The notes under the pieces were generated by a model. That model was not told where the DNA came from and ran no database searches. It saw only the letters and a program-made list of their open reading frames with translations. This document shows positions 1,175 to 30,472 of a DNA stretch of 38,372 nt, in pieces (position 1 is the stretch's first letter; each line of letters begins with the position of its first letter). This stretch comes from a virus. The DNA lies in the UHGV virus genome UHGV-0143060, one strand, 5' to 3'. The position numbers and the translations under genes were made by a program.

Positions 1175-3820
1175 TCAACCATTTAGTGTTAACTTTAATA
1201 ATTTTTCCAGATTATTAATCTTTGATGTGATATTGGCAATATCCTGCTCATGGTGATGATATAATGCGCTCATTGCCAGAAACATTAACTCGTCATAGCG
1301 CACTGATAATTTTCTTCCTGATTCCACAATTAACCTTACTTCACCAGTTTCATACTCTTCTTCCTCTGTGATTTCATCATACTGACCAGACTCTTCATCA
1401 ATTAAAATTTTTCTGGTCACATTTCTTGTTGCATAGACTTTCTCATACTCATCATCCCACTCTTCATAGCAAAGAACCCCATAAGAAAATGCATCAAGCC
1501 CCTCAGATTCAAAGATGGATTGTATATCTTGCGCAATTACACCGATATGCTCACGCGCTGACAAGCCTTTTTCTTTTACAGCATCCTTCATTCTGAATTT
1601 TTTTATCAGCGGGTAAATAGCCATTCCAACCCGTAGTTCTGCATCAGATAATGAAGCTTCATCCTGCTTGTAATTTCTGTCGCTGGTTACAATGGGGCTA
1701 TTATTTATATACAGGTTTCTGACAGTATTCGACTGTGTACCAATATCATAAAGATTTGAACCTGATGGTCGAAAATGACCTAATTCTGTTAATACCCATC
1801 TGTCACGCAAGCCGTCAATCTCTCCCATGGTTCCAAAGTAGAAAGCAACCGGGATATTGTCTCCGGAAGGATTACCTCTTGTGACGCATTTAATGTGTGC
1901 GCATTGCACAGCCTTACTACCTGTATCACCGGCCCATACATGAGTACCCAATACATCCCCTGTCTGCAGAGCTCCAAAATTATCAGTTGATACAACACCA
2001 GAGCGAGACTTATACATTATTGCTCTTGGTCCTTCTGCGGTGTCTGACTGATGCCGGGAAACCCATGAGTTGCTCATCCCTTCCGTGCCGTTTGAAGCTA
2101 ACTGCATTCCACCAGTAATTCCGCCATCAAGAAACAATATAGGGTTATCCCGGTTAGTTTGAATACCCTTTCTTGTTGGCCAAACTGTCCAGTGAAAAGT
2201 ATCATTGTATTCCCTTACTCCATATTTGAACTCCGGGGAGCCAGAACTATGAAGACCAGTATTACTGGATACAGAACGGCTTGCTTTGCTTTGCACTACC
2301 GAACCAGACCTGCCTATATCAAACAGATATACATTTTTCCCGTTCTCAGCAACTCCTTTATATGTGCATATTCCCAGCGTTAAAACATACCCACTCTCCG
2401 TTCTAATTACTGTTAGGGACTCAGGCTCTTTATAAACAGGAGTTCCTGTACTGTCAGATTTTGCTTCATCATCACCAACAGTTGAAATATCTACTCGCTC
2501 AATAAACCTGCCTGTTAAGTCAAATACGTAAATATAATTAGTCATGCCAACATACGTATGTGACTCAAGTATGTAAATGTATGCCCCATCGCAAGCAATT
2601 GATTGGGTAAATGCTTCTTGTGATGGTTTTTGATAGCTAAACTCAACTAAATAATCATCACTATAATCAGTTTTATGAGATCTGTTATTCCACATGCTGA
2701 CTATGTCGAAAACACGAACCGTGCAGGTAATTCCATCCGATGAAATTTTCTTGGCAAGTAGATAGTTTTCACAACTTGATACAGTTGGAGTAGAGCTTGC
2801 GCTCATTCCATCATAGGGGAACAACTTCCAGGTGATAAAACCTTCAGATACCCCGTTGGTTGTCCCTGTGTAACTCAATATATTTTCCATCGAAATACAT
2901 TGATTGGCGGCATCGGTTCCATAAGGCTTCGATGTCCACAGCACGACAGTACCATCAGGATTATGATGCAATCCAAGCCCCTGATGCCCAAGTTCAGTAG
3001 AACGGGTTCTGTCGTATCTTCCTAGTTCACCAGAATTCGTCACGTCAAAGGCATTAATGCAATAACCGTATGCTGTGGTAGATGATAAAGTAAAAATCTT
3101 GTCGTTAATTTCATCATAACAACACCCCTGAATGACCGCATATAAACCACCCGCACCTTCAGTTCTGCGCAACGTGTGTCTGGTGTTATATACTTTTGGC
3201 ATTCCGGAAAATATCAATGGCTCTCTTTTATCTCTTAATTTAAGATCACCAATCGCAATTCGTTTACTGCCATCACGAATAAAAGAACCATTTATATAGC
3301 TATTTTCAATAAAACTTTTAGTAACAAAAAATGCTCTTCCACTTAAATCAATAACCCTATTTTTTATATCCATTTCCAACGCGACAAATGCTTCAGTATC
3401 ATCGCTAATCCCATCCCCCTTAGCTCCAAAATAAAGAGGAGACATATTTAGCATATCATTTGATAATACTTTTTGTTTAAACTGATCCGGGTCATACTTC
3501 AGCACATTAGGAAAATAGAACTGCTGTGCACCATACGCATCATAAACAGCCATAGAATGGCCTTGCACGGTAACGAATTTGGCAATCTGTCCGTTATATA
3601 CTGGATACCCTGCGGCATTGATGACGATTGGCTGTGCAACATGAACGTGAGAACCATCTTCGTTCTCTACATAAACCTGAATCTGGTTTTCAGGATTTAC
3701 CGGGTCAGTGTCAATTTTACCGATATAAATTTTGCCATTGGCTACGGCTTTAAAAGAGCGGGCCATAGTGAAGAGTTGCGAAGGCATACTCACTACAACA
3801 TTGGCTGTAATGTCTGTCAT
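1175..3820 (-). CDS. Tailspike: P22 gp9-like head-binding N-terminus, beta-helix/pectate-lyase-like receptor-degrading body, C-terminal S74-type intramolecular chaperone domain
   Basis: First ~110 aa ([34 protein letters not shown]...) match P22 gp9 as recalled; [16 protein letters not shown] motif; C-terminal SDAELR...GVIAQDIQ resembles endosialidase-type chaperone domains. Confidence 0.85.
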
Positions 3821-3877
3821 TTAATTTGCTCCAGATACAAGGAATCGCCGCAGCATGGCTACGGTGAATTTTGGGCA

Positions 3878-3902
3878 TAAAAAAACCCAGCCGAAGCTGG
3901 GT
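3878..3902 (-). terminator. Rho-independent terminator downstream of ant
   Basis: ACCCAGC-CGAA-GCTGGGT hairpin followed by a T-run on the minus strand. Confidence 0.6.
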
Positions 3903-3920
3903 CGTTGCGTTGGTTATCTG

Positions 3921-4823
3921 TCAGTAGTTATGTACTGAAGGAGGTAATTCTTTATTCTTAAGTCTCATCCATGCGGAAAGATTCGTTGGTCCGTCTGGCT
4001 CATTGATATCAACATCTCGTGAGTGATTGATTAAAACGTCTCTCGCTATATCGATAATACGGGAGAACTCATAACCGCAGTCATGACATCTGCCGGAATA
4101 GTTCGATTGAATTTGTTTCAGCGCCGGATACAGTTCGCGGAATAATGCCTGTGAGCGGTTGGCATAATCCCATAGCCATACAAGGCTGTTTGCTTCTTTT
4201 GCAGAAAGCTCGTTGGTTTTCTTCTCTTGTTTGCCGATGAACTCACCTTCAAGCACTACCCTGTGGATGTACTCTACGGCTTGCGGTATCTGAGATGCAT
4301 CAAGCTCTTCAATACTTTCCACATTGAAACGCTGATGAATCATTGCATAAGCTTCTGGGTACATTAGATGCTTTTTGCTGACTAGCATATTTACAGCATC
4401 ACGAAGCGGAGTCCTGTCATCAACAGATGTTTTCTTACGTGCATTTTCTGCCTTTCCCTTTGTCCAGTAGTCATGCAGTACAGTAAAGCATTCTTCCTGG
4501 TACTGAATCAGTTTATCGCGGATGTCAGCTCGAACTTTCTCAGGGTTGATGCTGAACAGCCATCCATTTAACTTCTTCAAAGGAAGGCAGAGTAGCTTAC
4601 GAAGCTTCCCATCAGCGGCAACCATATTCATATGAATACAGTTGAACTTATCTAGTTGTTTCATAAGTTTTTGTTGCTGAGTACCCCAACTCATTCCAAG
4701 GTTTTCAACGATTGGCTTCATCGCAACGTATGCAACTCCGGCAGCCATGGCGGTGATAATTTGCTGACCGTTGAATGGTACGTAAGAGGTGTTCACTGCT
4801 TCTAAAATTGCTATACTATTCAT
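3921..4823 (-). CDS. ant: Antirepressor Ant (immI)
   Basis: [21 protein letters not shown]... resembles P22 Ant; ATG at 4823 has a GGAGA RBS and gives 300 aa; the tabulated ORF starts at an upstream TTG. Confidence 0.8.
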
Positions 4824-4891
4824 GTTGGTTTTTCTCCACGGATTTACTGACAACCGAAGCCCTGACTGTTCCCGCAGTTGGGGCTTCCACT

Positions 4892-5053
4892 TTACGCGCC
4901 AATGCGCCCTTCCTTCTTAAAGCTTTCCATTACTCTCTGATAAATCTCAGAGTTAACAGACCGACCATTCTCTTCCGCCACCTTGCGTACCAAATCCAAT
5001 GCTTCTTTAGGCCACCGCAAATTGAACTGCGGCATCTTGCTCATTCCTTTCAT
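4892..5053 (-). CDS. arc: Arc repressor (53 aa)
   Basis: [53 protein letters not shown] matches P22 Arc nearly exactly; true start is internal to the tabulated ORF. Confidence 0.9.
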
Positions 5054-26084: not shown

Positions 26085-26117
26085 CAAATAAAAAGGCCTG
26101 CGATTACCAGCAGGCCT
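26085..26117 (-). terminator. tR2-like terminator between the replication and nin genes
   Basis: AGGCCTGC-loop-GCAGGCCT hairpin followed by TTTTTATTTGG on the minus strand. Confidence 0.55.
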
Positions 26118-26146: not shown

Positions 26147-28027
26147 TTAATACTCCGTCACGTTTTCCTGTCGCCACGCCTCGTCATATTCCGATTTCGG
26201 CATATTGGCGATGTAGCTATATGGCGATCCTGATTCAAGTTGCAGGAACTGGTGCGATTGCTCGTCAAGGAACAACGGGACACCACCCTCCCAACCTTCG
26301 CCGTTACGTTGTTTTTCAAGCATCAAAACAGATGCCGGAGATGCCAGTAGCTGTTCGTCCTTCTCTGACATCTTTTCACCACTCTGAACTCTCTGTAACG
26401 CTCTCTCGCGAGCCTTGTTACGCCAGATGATGAAAAGGTTGTCTGTCAGGTCTGTTATCGCTCCAGAGCCTTTTACGTCCATTTTCCCGGTTGGTTTTTC
26501 TTCGCTGTCTCCTTTTCGCGAGTGAGTAACGAGAATGACGTGGGAGTTTGTTTTGTTTTTGAAGTCGCAAATCGAGTCAACAAACGCCTTCTGCCCGTTA
26601 TAGTCATCGTCGCCTATGCCACATTTCATCAGGCTGTCGATGATGAATAACTGGATACCGTATCGGCGGCGAGCGTAGTCGAATATTTCGATCAGCCTGT
26701 CGGCTTTCGCCGTTCCGGTCAGGCCAAACACCCAAAGTCTTTCGTCATAAAATTTAAATGCAGAGTCAATTTCCAGCACTGGCGGCATCTTGCAGCACGT
26801 TGCCTGACGGGTAAGTCGCTTAAGGAGAATGCCTGGCTTCAGCTCAAGTGACGCGATGCACGTCTTCACACCCTGACGCATTGCCTCAAGTGCCATATGC
26901 CCGACAACCTCCGTTTTTCCGTGACCGTTCACACCATTGACCAGCGTCAACTCTGCCTCACGGAACTGGAATTTATCTGCCAGAGATTCCCACGGTGGAT
27001 TAAACAGATACTGCTGCTTGCCGTAGAAAGCGTTGATAGTGTCCTGGTAAAACTCTCGCGCACTGTAGAGTTCTTCAGGATCGAAGTAGGATGCCGTGCC
27101 GATGTACTGCCAGATTTCATCCTCGGTAACACCGTTCATCAGGCATTCGTTGATGTCTTTGTACGGCAGAGTAACAAGACGGCAACGATGTTCACCGAGT
27201 CGGCTTGCGATTTCCCTTGCGGCTTCACGACCAACATCATCAACGTCCATCGAGATGAATATCTCCTCAAACCTGTCGAGGTTGTGATACTCAAACTCAA
27301 TCCACTGTTGCTTAGCACCTTTCCCGCCACCAAACGGCACGGATAACGCCGAGATGCCGTATTGCGCATAGCTCATACAATCAATTTCGCCTTCGCAAAG
27401 CACAACCGCCCTCACGCCAGCGTCCAGAGCCTGCCATCCGAACAGACAAGGTTCGCAATCACCTTCTGCCATAATGACTTTCTTCCCGTCCGGGCGCTCA
27501 GTGCTGATTCGCTTGACCTGCAACAACTCACCATCGCGTTTGTACGGAAGCACCAGAGCATCCAGTTCTTGTTCTCCATTCCACACCTTGCCGCTGACAA
27601 CCTCGTAGCGCTTTACGACTTCTGGCGATATGCCACGCGATTGCAGGTACTCAAGATGGGATTCTGTTCTGGTAACGTAGCGGGCGATTTTCTTGCGATC
27701 AGGTCTGGAGAATTTCTTCTCACGTTTGGCATCGAAATGGTGATCGTCATCCTTGATACCGAGAAATGCTTTCGCTTCCTGCATAGCCTGATGCAGGTTA
27801 ATTCCTCGACATGCCATCCACAAATCAAGCATGTCACCGCCGTCTCCCTCAGCGAAATCAGCCCATTTTTTCTTGCCGCTAAGGTTGACCTTAAGGCTGT
27901 TTCCCTTGTCACCGTTGACGTTACCGGCAACCCACTCATGCCCCTCTTTCTTGCCGTTCGGCAACAGGTGCGGAGCCACCCTGTCAACCTGCGCCCAAAG
28001 CAGGTCGCTAAGTTCACTTGGCGTCAT
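26147..28027 (-). CDS. Bifunctional DNA primase/helicase (Toprim-type primase N-half, DnaB/RecA-like helicase C-half)
   Basis: 626 aa; acidic Toprim-like LCEGEIDCMSYAQYG...MDVDDVG; helicase half LVNGVNGHGKTEV (Walker A-like) and LFIIDSLMK (Walker B-like). Confidence 0.75.
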   Translation of the reverse strand: MTPSELSDLLWAQVDRVAPHLLPNGKKEGHEWVAGNVNGDKGNSLKVNLSGKKKWADFAEGDGGDMLDLWMACRGINLHQAMQEAKAFLGIKDDDHHFDAKREKKFSRPDRKKIARYVTRTESHLEYLQSRGISPEVVKRYEVVSGKVWNGEQELDALVLPYKRDGELLQVKRISTERPDGKKVIMAEGDCEPCLFGWQALDAGVRAVVLCEGEIDCMSYAQYGISALSVPFGGGKGAKQQWIEFEYHNLDRFEEIFISMDVDDVGREAAREIASRLGEHRCRLVTLPYKDINECLMNGVTEDEIWQYIGTASYFDPEELYSAREFYQDTINAFYGKQQYLFNPPWESLADKFQFREAELTLVNGVNGHGKTEVVGHMALEAMRQGVKTCIASLELKPGILLKRLTRQATCCKMPPVLEIDSAFKFYDERLWVFGLTGTAKADRLIEIFDYARRRYGIQLFIIDSLMKCGIGDDDYNGQKAFVDSICDFKNKTNSHVILVTHSRKGDSEEKPTGKMDVKGSGAITDLTDNLFIIWRNKARERALQRVQSGEKMSEKDEQLLASPASVLMLEKQRNGEGWEGGVPLFLDEQSHQFLQLESGSPYSYIANMPKSEYDEAWRQENVTEY

Positions 28028-28131
28028 GATTCCCTCAGATTGAGATTTTTAAACCAGAAATCGACAAACGAAATACTTAACCAGCCGTGGTTATAACCAG
28101 CGACCAGTAGCGATTTGATTTTTGATTTCAT
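28024..28131 (-). CDS. Possible 35-aa hydrophobic peptide between initiator and primase-helicase
   Basis: AGGTGA RBS before ATG at 28131; stop overlaps the primase ATG (ATGA); hand-translated MKSKIKSLLVAGYNHGWLSISFVDFWFKNLNLRES. Confidence 0.25.
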   Translation of the reverse strand: MKSKIKSLLVAGYNHGWLSISFVDFWFKNLNLRES

Positions 28132-28134
28132 GGT

Positions 28135-28995
28135 TCACCTGTCGAAAAACACGTAGCCAGTTTTCGATACGGTGATTGCGGATGATGGTTTAGATTGTGG
28201 TTGAATGGTTTCTGGCTTTTCGTCGTTCCAGCGCTGACCGTTCAGGTAGCTCGATGGTAACAACCTGTCGAATCCGAACTGCTTACCATTCCTGCATGCG
28301 ATGTCTTCTGCCAGCATCGTGGCAAACTCGCTTGCCGTACCCTTGGTAGTTTTACGCCATTCCCTGAACTGTGTTCTGAATGCCGTAGCTGCGTTTTTCT
28401 TCCCGGCTTTCCGCATGCCTGCACACCAGAATATTTCCTCGAATGCCTTGTCGGTTTCTTCGTGACGGTCAGGTGATTTTTCACACTCCGTCCGAACACT
28501 TTCGGACATAGTGTTTTTATTATTTCTTTTTTCTTTTGTAATAGTTTCTTTTGTGTGTCCCTGTTTTGGTGACAGCGCTGTCACCGTTTTGGTGACACTT
28601 TTTGTCACCAATGCAGTGACATTATCACCAGAGTAGTGACACCCTTCGATTTTCCATTCTTCGATGTTCTTGTTAGGCCCGATTTGCTGGCCTTCGCGAA
28701 GGATAACCTTCATCGCGATAAGCTCATTCTTGGCCTTGTTTACCTTCTGTCTTGGCAGCCTGGTAATTTGAGCTAACTGACTATCAGAGATGCGATCCAT
28801 CTTTTTACCGTAGCCGTATGTTTTACGGCATATGGCGTGGGCAACCTTGCTCTGATTTTTCGTTAAATCTGCGCCGATAAGCTCTTCATACAGGGCATTT
28901 GCAAGACGGGTATAACCATCTTCAACTTCTGCCACACGACGCTCCACAGGCCGTTGTGAAGGCCTTAAATGTGTTACGGTTGCAAGATTACTCAT
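28135..28995 (-). CDS. Replication initiator with lambda O-like N-terminal ori-binding domain
   Basis: [56 protein letters not shown] resembles the lambda O N-terminus; C-terminal half differs. Confidence 0.8.
28511..28650. repeat. Origin of replication inside the initiator gene: GTGACA/TGTCACC iteron array plus adjacent AT-rich tract
   Basis: At least five GGTGACA/TGTCACC copies in alternating orientation within about 90 bp (28560-28650), next to an AT-rich stretch (28511-28560); encodes the [10 protein letters not shown] repeat of the protein. Confidence 0.7.
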
Positions 28996-29134
28996 GACCT
29001 TTCTCCTTCTGCATCAGCTTCACTTTTTCCAACTCAGCCCGGAATCGACCAGGCTGCTTGAAGCTGGACAGGAAGCGATCACGTAGTATGTGTTTGTGAA
29101 TTTTGTCCTGGTAAGGACTGAGTTGTTTTGTCAT
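28990..29134 (-). CDS. Possible small ORF (48 aa) between the cII-like gene and the initiator
   Basis: Hand-translated [48 protein letters not shown]; no clear RBS. Confidence 0.3.
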
Positions 29135-29168: not shown

Positions 29169-29447
29169 TCAGGCCTCGAAGAATTCGCCGTTCTTCGGGG
29201 CTTTTTCTTTTGTCAGCATTCTGGCTACTTTCTTAGCCAGTTCCGCCAACTCCTCGTCTTCAACACCCCATTCAAGAACAGCCAGAAGCATTCCCATTTT
29301 TGGGATAAAGCTGTCTTTCCATCGCGAAATTTGCGATTCATTAATCCCTAACGCATCAGCAACCTTTCGCTGACCACGTACAGCAATTCGATTCAGGATG
29401 TTGCTTGTAATTGCATTCGCTTTCTTGCGAGTACTTGTAAGTTCCAT
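29169..29447 (-). CDS. CII-like transcriptional activator (P22 c1 position)
   Basis: [39 protein letters not shown] resembles lambda CII HTH; AAGGAA RBS before ATG at 29447; tabulated ORF extends further upstream. Confidence 0.75.
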
Positions 29448-29504
29448 ATGTAAGTATTTCCTTAACAAATAAGAAGTTATGCGCATCAACTTATGCGCGT
29501 TGTA

Positions 29505-29550
29505 TTCCCGCATTTCGGCGGGAATGAGGACCATGACTGTTAAAGAGCAA
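29505..29550 (-). promoter_or_regulatory. nutR (boxA plus boxB hairpin)
   Basis: Minus strand TGCTCTTTAACA (boxA-like) then TTCCCGCCGAAATGCGGGAA hairpin; the same boxA/boxB pair recurs as nutL on the + strand. Confidence 0.65.
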
Positions 29551-29555
29551 TTTGC

Positions 29556-29741
29556 TTATGCCGCTTTGCGGTAAGCGCTTTCTTGATACTTCAGGGCGCC
29601 AGCTGTAACGACTTCCAGTCGATAGGCGTCTTTCTCTGGGATGACTTCCTTCCACTGAGAGACTGCTGCGTCGCTAATGCCTAACGCTTTAGCTACAGCA
29701 CGCTGGGTTCCGAAGTGGTCGATAACATCTTTCTTGTACAT
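29556..29741 (-). CDS. cro: Cro
   Basis: MYKKDVIDHFGTQRAVAKALGISDAAVSQWKEVIPEKDAYRLEVVTAGALKYQESAYRKAA matches P22 Cro. Confidence 0.9.
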   Translation of the reverse strand: MYKKDVIDHFGTQRAVAKALGISDAAVSQWKEVIPEKDAYRLEVVTAGALKYQESAYRKAA

Positions 29742-29821: not shown

Positions 29822-30472
29822 ATGAAAACTCAATTGATGGGAGAGCGCATTCGCGCTCGGAGAAAAGAACTCAAGATCAGGCAGGCCGCACTTGGAAAGA
29901 TGGTCGGCGTGTCTAATGTTGCCATATCTCAGTGGGAACGCTCTGAGACAGAGCCAAATGGAGAGAATCTTCTCGCCCTGGCTAATGCGTTGAAGTGTTC
30001 CCCTGACTATCTGATGAAAGGAGAGGAAAGTCTTTCAAACATTGCCTATCACAGTAGGCATGATCCAAGAGGGTCATACCCTCTGATTAGCTGGGTGAGC
30101 GCAGGATGCTGGATGGAAGCTGTAGAACCATATCATAAGCGTGCAATAGATAACTGGTACGATACAACCGTAGACTGTTCAGACGATTCGTTTTGGTTGG
30201 ACGTGAAGGGAGACTCAATGACGGCTCCGGCCGGTCTCAGTATCCCTGAAGGAATGATAATACTCGTCGATCCTGAAGTAGAGCCGCGTAACGGGAAACT
30301 GGTAGTTGCAAAGCTCGAAGGAGAAAACGAGGCAACTTTCAAGAAGTTAGTTATTGATGCAGGCAGGAAGTTTCTAAAACCACTTAACCCACAATATCCG
30401 ATGATCGAGATCAACGGGAACTGCAAAATCATCGGCGTAGTTGTCGATGCAAAACTAGCAAACCTTCCATAA
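29822..30472 (+). CDS. c2: C2 repressor (P22 immC type)
   Basis: 216 aa, MKTQLMGERIRARRKELKIRQAALGKMVGVSNVAISQWERSETEPNGENLLAL... matches P22 C2 including the LexA-like C-terminal domain. Confidence 0.95.
   Translation: MKTQLMGERIRARRKELKIRQAALGKMVGVSNVAISQWERSETEPNGENLLALANALKCSPDYLMKGEESLSNIAYHSRHDPRGSYPLISWVSAGCWMEAVEPYHKRAIDNWYDTTVDCSDDSFWLDVKGDSMTAPAGLSIPEGMIILVDPEVEPRNGKLVVAKLEGENEATFKKLVIDAGRKFLKPLNPQYPMIEINGNCKIIGVVVDAKLANLP

Follow-up and report, generated by a model that had tools for sequence, protein, structure and literature searches.

The replication region of virus genome UHGV-0143060 raises the question of how a phage with a lambda-O-like initiator would begin DNA synthesis when the partner of that initiator is a fused primase-helicase instead of a lambda-P-type loader, and whether such a combination is unusual. 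The window, that is, the whole stretch of DNA analysed here (38,372 nucleotides, or 38 kb), is P22-like E. coli prophage sequence, with the replication module located at 26147-29134. The best explanation, to which we assign a probability of about 80%, is that this region represents the early-right replication module of a temperate, P22-like phage and that the module is of a type first annotated in Salmonella phage ES18. As read from its sequence, the module consists of a lambda-O-type initiator with an in-gene origin, followed by a T7-gp4-like primase-helicase that replaces lambda P. An earlier note on this DNA had called the region a hybrid. Every feature which that note had listed was recovered in its place, but the word does not hold in the sense of unusual, since the ES18/epsilon34/mEp043/Sf101 module type is already established. 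The module is real but ordinary. Annotations of an O-type initiator paired with a T7-gp4-like primase-helicase go back to ES18 (2005), and the pairing is frequent in E. coli: of 5426 complete genomes of this species, 2137 match some portion of the region and 167 contain at least 80% of it. Published descriptions of the ES18-type module are available (PMC2629481, PMC10307801). The parts of the module are as follows.

26094-26117, minus strand: terminator-like hairpin with a T-run (8-bp stem, 6 GC pairs; consensus match only)
26147-28027, minus strand: primase-helicase, 626 aa, with a zinc-less N-domain (aa 1 to about 190), Toprim and SF4 helicase
28024-28131, minus strand: 35-aa gene, homologue of ES18 gp60 (PHROG 21848, E=4e-26)
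28135-28995, minus strand: replication initiator, 286 aa, with a lambda-O-type winged-helix N-domain, a disordered linker and a non-lambda helical C-domain
28204-28470, minus strand: C-terminal helical domain of the initiator (aa 176-264; PHROG 33384), proposed primase-helicase adaptor
28483-28514, no strand: imperfect palindrome beyond the AT-rich tract (14-nt arms, 86% complementary, 4-nt loop)
28511-28555, no strand: AT-rich tract, presumed DNA-unwinding element (80% A+T vs 53% in the whole window)
28556-28641, no strand: four 19-bp dyad-symmetric iterons of the pattern TGTCAC-N7-GTGACA, reading on the coding strand TGTCACTACTCTGGTGATA (28641-28623), TGTCACTGCATTGGTGACA (28621-28603), TGTCACCAAAACGGTGACA (28597-28579) and TGTCACCAAAACAGGGACA (28574-28556)
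28654-28938, minus strand: coding region of the Phage_rep_O domain (aa 20-114; Pfam PF04492), presumed iteron-binding winged helix
28988-29134, minus strand: DUF2740 gene, 48 aa, between cII and O (Pfam PF10872, E=8.9e-29; PHROG 1913)

The N-terminal part of the initiator resembles lambda O, as the earlier note had proposed. Its Pfam match to Phage_rep_O (aa 20-114) scores 128.8 bits with E=1.1e-37, the cut-off being 28.7 bits, and BLASTP aligns it with residues 1-157 of lambda O at 49% identity (E=2e-42). The AF2 model of the initiator contains helices and strands at aa 27-116, a stretch with pLDDT below 50 at aa 119-155, and a region with pLDDT of 94-98 at aa 181-260. A Foldseek search of this model against the PDB returned only weak winged-helix matches to the N-domain (MarR family and the DnaD N-domain, E >0.03), and no solved structure that would hint at helicase binding by the C-domain. 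Related N-domains in Proteus and Erwinia phages carry related iterons, with TGTCAC in phage V3 and TGTTAC in phiEt88.

The C-terminal domain is not related to that of lambda O. It revealed no homology to the C-terminus of lambda O (BLASTP best E=1.8, hhalign probability 0.03%) and no Pfam family at E<=10. A word-indexed protein search with this domain returned mostly partial, near-identical proteins, and the wider family became visible in an exhaustive search of cluster representatives, 366 of which match at E<=1e-3. The family shares the motif AFExFWxAGMRK...QFGFDKLHPTTYLNGERWNDE and is found behind at least seven N-terminal domain families. The C-domain, the 35-aa ORF and the primase-helicase travel together behind three different types of N-domain and iteron. 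In a set of 80 close IMG/VR loci, 77 have at least part of the primase-helicase downstream and none has P; one contig ends before the primase-helicase, and two others cut it short. Among 80 diverse loci, all 47 C-domains that are at least 52% identical to the one in the window and have a readable partner are paired with a primase-helicase. C-domains of at most 50% identity mostly have a DnaC/IstB-like, P-like or DnaB-like gene as partner; two of those paired with a primase-helicase are only 48-50% identical. The idea that the whole C-domain family is specific to primase-helicases was rejected, as its distant members adjoin genes of these other kinds. The apparent correlation of the C-domain with the primase-helicase stands at the subfamily level only. 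The suggestion that the C-terminal half of the initiator would recruit a phage helicase is supported by this co-variation across phages and by the absence of relatedness to lambda O.

Both small flanking ORFs, which had been noted as possible genes, belong to conserved families. The DUF2740 gene, whose stop overlaps the start of O by 8 nt, is present in 77 of 80 related loci at 92-100% identity, and P22 orf48 or a protein annotated as DUF2740 occupies the corresponding place in records of P22-like phages. The stop of the 35-aa gene overlaps the start of the primase-helicase (ATGA). This short ORF is intact in 17 of 17 DNA variants, with changes that are mostly synonymous or conservative, and of 50 diverse loci with a primase-helicase, 45 have a homologue of it (41-100% identity) placed between that gene and the initiator. 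The 35-aa gene counts as the third conserved gene in the module.

It is unlikely, though worth serious consideration, that the C-domain is no adaptor at all and acts instead in general origin remodelling, in ssDNA binding or in binding of a host factor, while the primase-helicase is recruited by the 35-aa protein or loads itself onto opened AT-rich DNA; co-occurrence would then reflect linkage only. The range of neighbours of the C-domain family (DnaC/IstB-like, lambda-P-like and DnaB-like genes) and of N-domain families in front of it would suit such a generic function, and the 35-aa ORF is linked to the primase-helicase as tightly as the C-domain is. Moreover, a crossover in the conserved AT-rich tract parts the N-domain from all that lies downstream, so that the C-domain stays with the downstream genes regardless of its function. 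Against this, the sequence similarity of the C-domains follows the type of partner, and none of about 125 readable loci has a close C-domain (at least 52% identity) beside a different partner, even though joints in lambdoid phages usually fall at gene boundaries. In lambda O, the P-binding domain established by lambda genetics occupies the position equivalent to that of the C-domain in the initiator studied here. A bolder extension of the adaptor reading is possible, with the odds somewhat against it: the C-domain, of roughly 90 aa, may be a widely shuffled module for recruiting helicases or loaders, whose subtypes co-evolve with four classes of partner (primase-helicase, DnaC-like, P-like and DnaB-like), and the 35-aa peptide may be indispensable as a third factor in the primase-helicase subtype, for instance as a loader or for ring opening. 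If this were true, the module would form a lambdoid replicon complete in itself, with no need of DnaB, DnaC or DnaG.

The identity of the partner protein agrees with its earlier description as a fusion of a Toprim primase and a DnaB-like helicase. Pfam reports Toprim_2 (E=3e-12) and AAA_25 (28.0 against a cut-off of 27), with DnaB_C just below its cut-off (23.8 vs 27). Residues 192-539 of the 626-aa protein align with T7 gp4 (PDB 5ikn, E=2.5e-23), the match to Twinkle (8e2l) has E=7e-14, and the protein falls into PHROG 239 (E=2e-171). The Toprim motifs are EGEID at 212, DVDD at 261 and KDINE at 290, and their acidic residues (EGEID, DxD, KDxNE) align with those of T7 gp4; the SF4 helicase motifs, Walker A GHGKT at 368 and Walker B IIDS at 462, are intact. 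The fusion is kept full-length down to 51% identity. The N-terminal part is different, as residues 1-190 contain a single Cys and no Cys4 zinc-binding domain, residues 1-200 have no Pfam match at E<=10, and no conserved Cys pattern was found in this region among ten orthologues (51-100% identity). In T7 gp4, the Cys4 zinc-binding domain is needed for template-directed priming. The primase activity of the 626-aa protein is uncertain because this domain is missing.

This makes room for a rather improbable alternative, according to which the 626-aa protein is mainly a primase or an accessory factor, or a helicase only, with priming by host DnaG, so that host enzymes would still be needed for unwinding or priming. 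The absence of a zinc-binding domain from the first 190 residues of every orthologue examined and the DnaB_C score of 23.8 bits below the Pfam cut-off are compatible with it, and the phage helicase gp12 of P22 works with host DnaG, as stated in a passage of PMC8022706 that cites Wickner 1984. Such a reading has to contend with the alignment of the Walker A/B and other helicase motifs to T7 gp4, with the intact acidic residues of Toprim and with conservation of the whole fusion. It also lacks a loader for host DnaB in the window: tblastn found no lambda P homologue there (best E=0.14, not downstream of O), the ORFs downstream of the initiator do not match Phage_lambda_P (PF06992), with the 35-aa ORF having no Pfam family, and no DnaB-type helicase homologue is encoded anywhere in the 38 kb. 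The earlier statement that a P-type loader is missing is therefore confirmed for the window. A primase-helicase of the T7 gp4 kind, acting as the replicative partner of the initiator, is the preferred reading of these data.

The proposal of an origin embedded in the initiator gene is supported by an anatomy that follows ori-lambda. GGTGACA/TGTCACC repeats had been noted as an array of iterons; the repeats are present, but they do not form a loose array of 7-mers, as these words are the half-sites of the four palindromic 19-mers. The bare count of GGTGACA was set aside as evidence (8 vs 3.7 expected, not significant) in favour of the 19-bp dyad pattern. With at most one mismatch, TGTCAC-N7-GTGACA occurs four times in the window, every time at 28556-28641, compared with an expectation of about 0.08 and with 200 shuffles that averaged 0.1 and never exceeded 2. 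The start-to-start distances are 20, 24 and 23 bp, and this unequal spacing is why Tandem Repeats Finder missed them. The iterons align column by column with the four of lambda, whose positions (39034/39054/39078/39101) give the same spacing. The order of elements is also that of ori-lambda, with iterons (28641-28556), AT-rich tract (28555-28511) and palindrome (28514-28483), and the presumed cognate iterons lie within the initiator's own ORF. The AT-rich tract is almost identical to that of lambda. The inverted repeat of ori-lambda presumably occupies the place corresponding to the palindrome, past the AT-rich tract. The palindrome is part of a block that the window has in common with ES18 and the Stx phages. 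The reading that the repeats merely follow from a repetitive VT-x peptide, with the true origin elsewhere, is very hard to believe: the iterons do encode VT-rich repeats, yet this peptide sits in the predicted disordered linker, the repeats as DNA are palindromes in the exact register and spacing of lambda, an unrelated type of N-domain has DNA repeats of another kind at this position, and the corresponding ES18 site is annotated as rep_origin.

Nature has provided a series of domain swaps around this putative origin, with joints that map to 28519-28523, within the AT-rich tract. In the window, the N-domain is joined to its own C-domain, the 35-aa ORF and the primase-helicase. In ES18, lambda's N-domain precedes a C-domain of the window type, gp60 and the primase-helicase, while in an Stx-type locus (L085) an HTH_36 N-domain with six 24-bp repeats precedes a window-type C-domain, the 35-aa ORF and the primase-helicase. 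PhiR12_1, whose N-domain and iterons do not differ from those of the window, has lambda's C-domain and P. These ready-made chimeras combine one C-domain with three types of N-domain and one type of N-domain with two C-domains, and could reveal which domain of the initiator determines origin specificity and which determines the choice of helicase. They are an experimental handle rather than a discovery.

By analogy with lambda, the following course of events is proposed. Transcription from pR would pass through cro, cII, the DUF2740 gene, the initiator gene, the 35-aa gene and the primase-helicase gene. Dimers of the winged-helix N-domain would bind the four iterons within the initiator gene, and the resulting nucleoprotein complex would strain and open the adjacent 45-bp AT-rich tract. 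The C-domain, held on its disordered linker, may then recruit the hexameric primase-helicase of the phage, possibly aided by the 35-aa protein. The recruited enzyme would unwind the DNA and would also prime synthesis if the zinc-less primase is active. Initiation might thus do without lambda P, host DnaB and DnaC, and perhaps DnaG as well. The hairpin at 26094-26117, between the primase-helicase and ninB, probably marks the downstream end of the module, at a position that we take to be comparable to lambda tR2. Rfam revealed no RNA families within the module. Modules of this type appear to be catalogued only: limited literature searches yielded descriptions at the level of genome annotation only, with no biochemical account of an origin handover from an O-type initiator to a T7-gp4-like primase-helicase.

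Among known systems, ES18 (gp58-gp59-gp60-gp61; AY736146) is the reference, and epsilon34 and g341c share its arrangement. The order is the same as in the window, with a DUF2740-type gene, an O-like initiator with an internal origin, a 108-nt ORF (about 35 aa), a 626-aa primase-helicase and nin genes, and the C-domain, the small ORF and the primase-helicase are all homologous. DNA identity is about 88% over 83% of the query, and the C-halves of the initiators are near-identical in protein alignment. The ES18 record already labels these elements as 'similar to lambda gpO', 'similar to lambda ori' and 'primase/helicase similar to T7 gene 4', and marks the 108-nt ORF. Its N-domain and iterons are of lambda's own type (TCCCTC/GAGGGA arms), in contrast to the 49%-identical N-domain and the TGTCAC/GTGACA arms of the window, and a different origin specificity is therefore predicted. 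The whole module, N-domain and iterons included, occurs in coliphage mEp043, Shigella phage Sf101 and E. coli phage vB_EcoP-720R6 at 97.8-98.5% DNA identity and in Salmonella phage SEN22 at 91.9%; taken by itself, the N-domain/iteron segment reaches 99.2-99.6% in mEp043, SEN22 and 720R6. Judging from these alignments, the four modules are the same as that of the window, with point differences only. Their records name a 'DNA replication protein O' together with a 'toprim domain-containing protein', 'DNA primase' or 'DNA primase/helicase'.

With lambda itself, the window shares a homologous origin-binding N-domain, dyad iterons at 20/24/23 bp inside the gene, a near-identical AT-rich tract and a place in the pR operon after cII. 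It differs in having an unrelated initiator C-domain, no P and two extra small genes, and in the partner, which is a phage-encoded primase-helicase instead of a loader for host DnaB. T7 gp4 and mitochondrial Twinkle, like the protein studied here, are single polypeptides that contain both Toprim and SF4 helicase, and the catalytic motifs align over 192-539, whereas the window protein has a different conserved N-terminal domain in place of Cys4. T7 replication starts at a transcription-primed origin; the window enzyme, unlike that of T7, is proposed to start from an initiator-bound origin. P22 (gene 18/gene 12) also joins an O-like initiator to a phage replicative helicase rather than a loader, with a DUF2740 gene (orf48) upstream. 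However, P22 gp12 is described in the relevant passage of PMC8022706 as a DnaB-family helicase without a primase domain that uses host DnaG, in contrast to the T7-gp4-type fusion, and DNA similarity to P22 is restricted to 110 bp at the orf48/gene 18 junction.

Finally, the C-domain, the 35-aa ORF and the primase-helicase are common to the window and to 'Eru5'-type regions of Stx phages (an HTH_36 protein plus a primase; PMC8951638), at about 97-98% DNA identity. The Stx-type N-domain is HTH_36 with 24-bp tandem repeats, in contrast to Phage_rep_O with 19-bp iterons. We infer the match to 'Eru5' from the text of that paper, not from an accession, and Min27, phi24B and Stx2a phages seem to belong to it. 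Some Stx-type copies carry an intein in the helicase P-loop. The module is thus also present in Stx-converting phages, for which an effect of the replication type on lysogen stability and virulence has been proposed by others (PMC8044961).

The window is a P22-like E. coli prophage, the first 25 kb of which are approximately 95% identical to phages phiv205-1, CUS-3, and Kapi1. A P22-type sar antisense RNA (immI region) was matched at 4824-4891 on the plus strand (Rfam RF00262, 91.5 bits), indicating an ant/mnt/arc-type second immunity region in the prophage. The replication module sits on the minus strand in the early-right operon, the genes of which overlap or are almost contiguous; the DUF2740 gene stop and initiator start overlap by 8 nt, and the 35-aa ORF stop and primase-helicase start overlap as ATGA.

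Early-right region and origin
29822-30472, plus strand, cI
29799-29772, minus strand, pR-like promoter
29556-29741, minus strand, cro
29169-29534, minus strand, cII
28988-29134, minus strand, 48-aa DUF2740 gene
28135-28995, minus strand, 286-aa initiator
28641-28623, 28621-28603, 28597-28579, 28574-28556, iterons 1-4, inside the initiator gene
28555-28511, AT-rich tract directly beyond the iterons (45 bp, 80% A+T)
28514-28483, imperfect palindrome beyond the AT-rich tract
28024-28131, minus strand, 35-aa ORF
26147-28027, minus strand, 626-aa primase-helicase
26117-26094, minus strand, terminator-like hairpin between primase-helicase and ninB
beyond that hairpin, ninB

The longest cII ORF encodes 121 aa. 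Since the Pfam CII domain spans only aa 30-120, translation probably begins at an internal ATG, for a product of about 90-97 aa like that of other lambdoid phages. Additionally, a strong terminator-like hairpin (14-bp stem and T-run) lies antisense to the cII 3' end at 29171-29203 on the plus strand. It matches no Rfam family, and its position corresponds to that at which the lambda oop antisense RNA ends.

This is a real and ordinary lambdoid replication module, correctly read in the earlier note and already catalogued. In the 2005 GenBank record of phage ES18, gp59 carries the remark 'similar to phage lambda gpO', and a rep_origin is described as 'similar to lambda ori'; gp60 is annotated too, followed by gp61, a 'putative primase/helicase; similar to phage T7 gene 4'. 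For gp59, the function entered in the same record (3411-4259 of the compared locus) is 'inhibition of DNA replication', where 'initiation' was presumably meant. In the epsilon34 paper, the N-terminal region of the ES18-type initiator was reported to be 94% identical to lambda gpO, with a putative helicase as partner (PMC2629481), and the Anderson typing-phage paper names an O homologue with a nonhomologous primase-helicase among three types of P22-like replication module (PMC10307801). Regions with HTH_36 and primase were also described in Stx-phage surveys (PMC8951638). Moreover, mEp043, Sf101, and 720R6 carry exactly the same module at 97.8-98.5% identity. These annotations, papers, and phages place the module among those already known. 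Part of it is matched in 2137 of 5426 complete E. coli genomes, and at least 80% of it in 167; a limited literature search found no mechanistic study. What is added is modest, namely the exact iteron anatomy of the TGTCAC/GTGACA specificity type, the location of swap joints, the extent of a C-domain family without a Pfam family, and the conservation of the 35-aa gene.

The proposed lambda-O-like N-terminus of the initiator is borne out by Pfam Phage_rep_O at aa 20-114 (E=1.1e-37) and 49% identity to lambda O across residues 1-157. The AF2 model predicts a winged-helix N-domain, a disordered linker, and, with confidence, a helical C-domain (pLDDT 94-98). The GGTGACA/TGTCACC words noticed earlier in the gene are indeed there, as half-sites of four 19-bp palindromic iterons, and the AT-rich tract adjoins them as described. 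When one mismatch at most is allowed, the 38 kb contain four occurrences of the dyad pattern, all inside the initiator gene, against approximately 0.08 expected (maximum of 2 in 200 shuffles). Because the iteron-encoded peptide falls in the predicted disordered linker (pLDDT <50 at aa 119-155), the model indicates that the repeats are a feature of the DNA rather than of the protein.

The 626-aa protein was correctly taken for a fusion of Toprim primase and DnaB-like helicase. It matches Toprim_2, AAA_25, and DnaB_C in Pfam; an alignment with T7 gp4 (PDB 5ikn) spans residues 192-539 (E=2.5e-23), and Twinkle aligns as well (E=7e-14). Both Walker A/B (GHGKT, IIDS) and the Toprim motifs EGEID, DxD, and KDxNE are conserved. 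Residues 1-190 contain a single cysteine, the N-terminus has no Pfam match, and no Cys4 pattern is common to ten orthologues of 51-100% identity. In T7 gp4, the zinc-binding domain is required for template-directed priming. Thus, priming by the 626-aa protein is uncertain, and a role for host DnaG is possible.

Among Stx-type phages, some have a primase-helicase ORF of 860-968 aa (Min27, 2166-4748; L163, 1353-4259; L165, 5429-8335). An intein-like insertion in Min27 (GHGK|ACPL...THN|TEVVGH) splits the Walker A P-loop, and similarity in L163 and L165 ends at the same site, residue 372. In the Min27 record, the reading frame also appears to be shifted within the initiator and close to the primase-helicase 3' end. 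Another insertion, of about 490 bp, separates the 35-aa ORF from the primase-helicase in a minority of the modules, which are nearly identical in other respects (L010, L023, L026, L037, and L078, about 4478-4967 in each; E. coli H30 and H31). This insertion probably represents a mobile homing endonuclease gene, because RefSeq annotates a NUMOD4-motif HNH endonuclease at the module in two E. coli genomes.

Both small ORFs previously regarded as possible fall into conserved families. The one proposed at 28990-29134 is the DUF2740 gene, 28988-29134; P22 orf48 and DUF2740-annotated genes occupy the corresponding place in P22-like phages. Its homologues carry a 'tail protein' label (PHROG 1913; RefSeq NC_019706, NC_027398, NC_028696, NC_002371), which is likely a propagated misannotation, given the position in the early-right operon between cII and O. 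The 35-aa ORF at 28024-28131 corresponds to ES18 gp60 and PHROG 21848. It is unbroken in all 17 DNA variants: 13 with a single nucleotide change (nine synonymous, four altering one residue), two with two differences each, and two divergent forms with 25-26 differences per 108 nt and conservative changes. Homologues are traceable to 41% identity. Very probably, the ORF is a genuine gene and a third member of the module.

The earlier note had also suggested a partner other than a P-type loader, and the window has neither a P homologue nor a DnaB-type one, with the primase-helicase downstream instead. Beyond residue 157, no similarity of the initiator to lambda O was found, and the halves recur in other combinations.

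Swap series (N-terminal half and origin; C-domain; downstream genes)
ES18: N-domain and iterons of lambda; C-domain of the window; 108-nt ORF and primase-helicase
PhiR12_1: N-domain and iterons identical to those of the window; C-domain of lambda; P
Stx-type locus L085: HTH_36 and 5.8 copies of a 24-bp repeat; C-domain of the window; 35-aa ORF and primase-helicase

Stx-phage similarity stops at 28519 and PhiR12-phage similarity starts at 28523, so the swap joints fall inside the conserved AT-rich tract. In IMG/VR, 80 loci have a C-domain of 97% identity or more; a primase-helicase follows, at least in part, in 77 of these, and P in none of the 80; one contig ends ahead of the primase-helicase and two others truncate it. 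The swap series, this linkage, and the window's content support the suggestion of phage helicase recruitment by the C-terminal half, although plain linkage would fit the sequences too.

The C-domain core (residues ~176-264; FWxAGMRK...FGFDKLHPTTYLNGERW) has no Pfam model and is widespread, with 366 cluster representatives at E<=1e-3 in an exhaustive search. Among 117 sampled proteins, it is attached to HTH_36 (21), Phage_rep_O (12), DUF1376 (12), DnaD_N (9), Lin1244_N (4), and other N-domains. Fusions to DUF6291 and T5orf172 also occur in diverse viral contigs (L087-L166). A primase-helicase orthologue (51-100% identity) lies downstream in 50 of 80 diverse viral loci, and a 35-aa ORF homologue was detected in between in 45 of these 50. 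Specificity of the whole family for the primase-helicase is ruled out by members preceding DnaC/IstB-like ATPases, lambda-P-like proteins, or DnaB-like helicase. C-domains at least 52% identical to that of the window have the primase-helicase wherever the partner is readable (47/47), and for those at most 50% identical another partner is the rule, with two exceptions. This pattern would fit co-evolution of C-domain and partner; plain linkage is a less likely reading of the same sequences. A wider proposition, in which the C-domain serves generally for recruitment, in forms matched to the partner, and the 35-aa peptide is an essential loader-like factor, is less likely than not.

Helicase recruitment by the C-terminal half would parallel the organization of lambda O, in which the N-half is specific for the origin and the C-half for P. 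At the DNA level, the two origins align in register. The annotated lambda iterons begin at 39034, 39054, 39078, and 39101, and this 20/24/23-bp spacing is exactly that of the window. The iteron arms differ (TCCCTC/GAGGGA in lambda, TGTCAC/GTGACA in the window); the sequences are almost identical from mid-iteron 4 through the AT-rich tract. Related iterons accompany more distant N-domains: the N-domain of Proteus phage V3, which has iterons with TGTCAC, is 53% identical to that of the window, and that of Erwinia phage phiEt88, with TGTTAC, is 39% identical.
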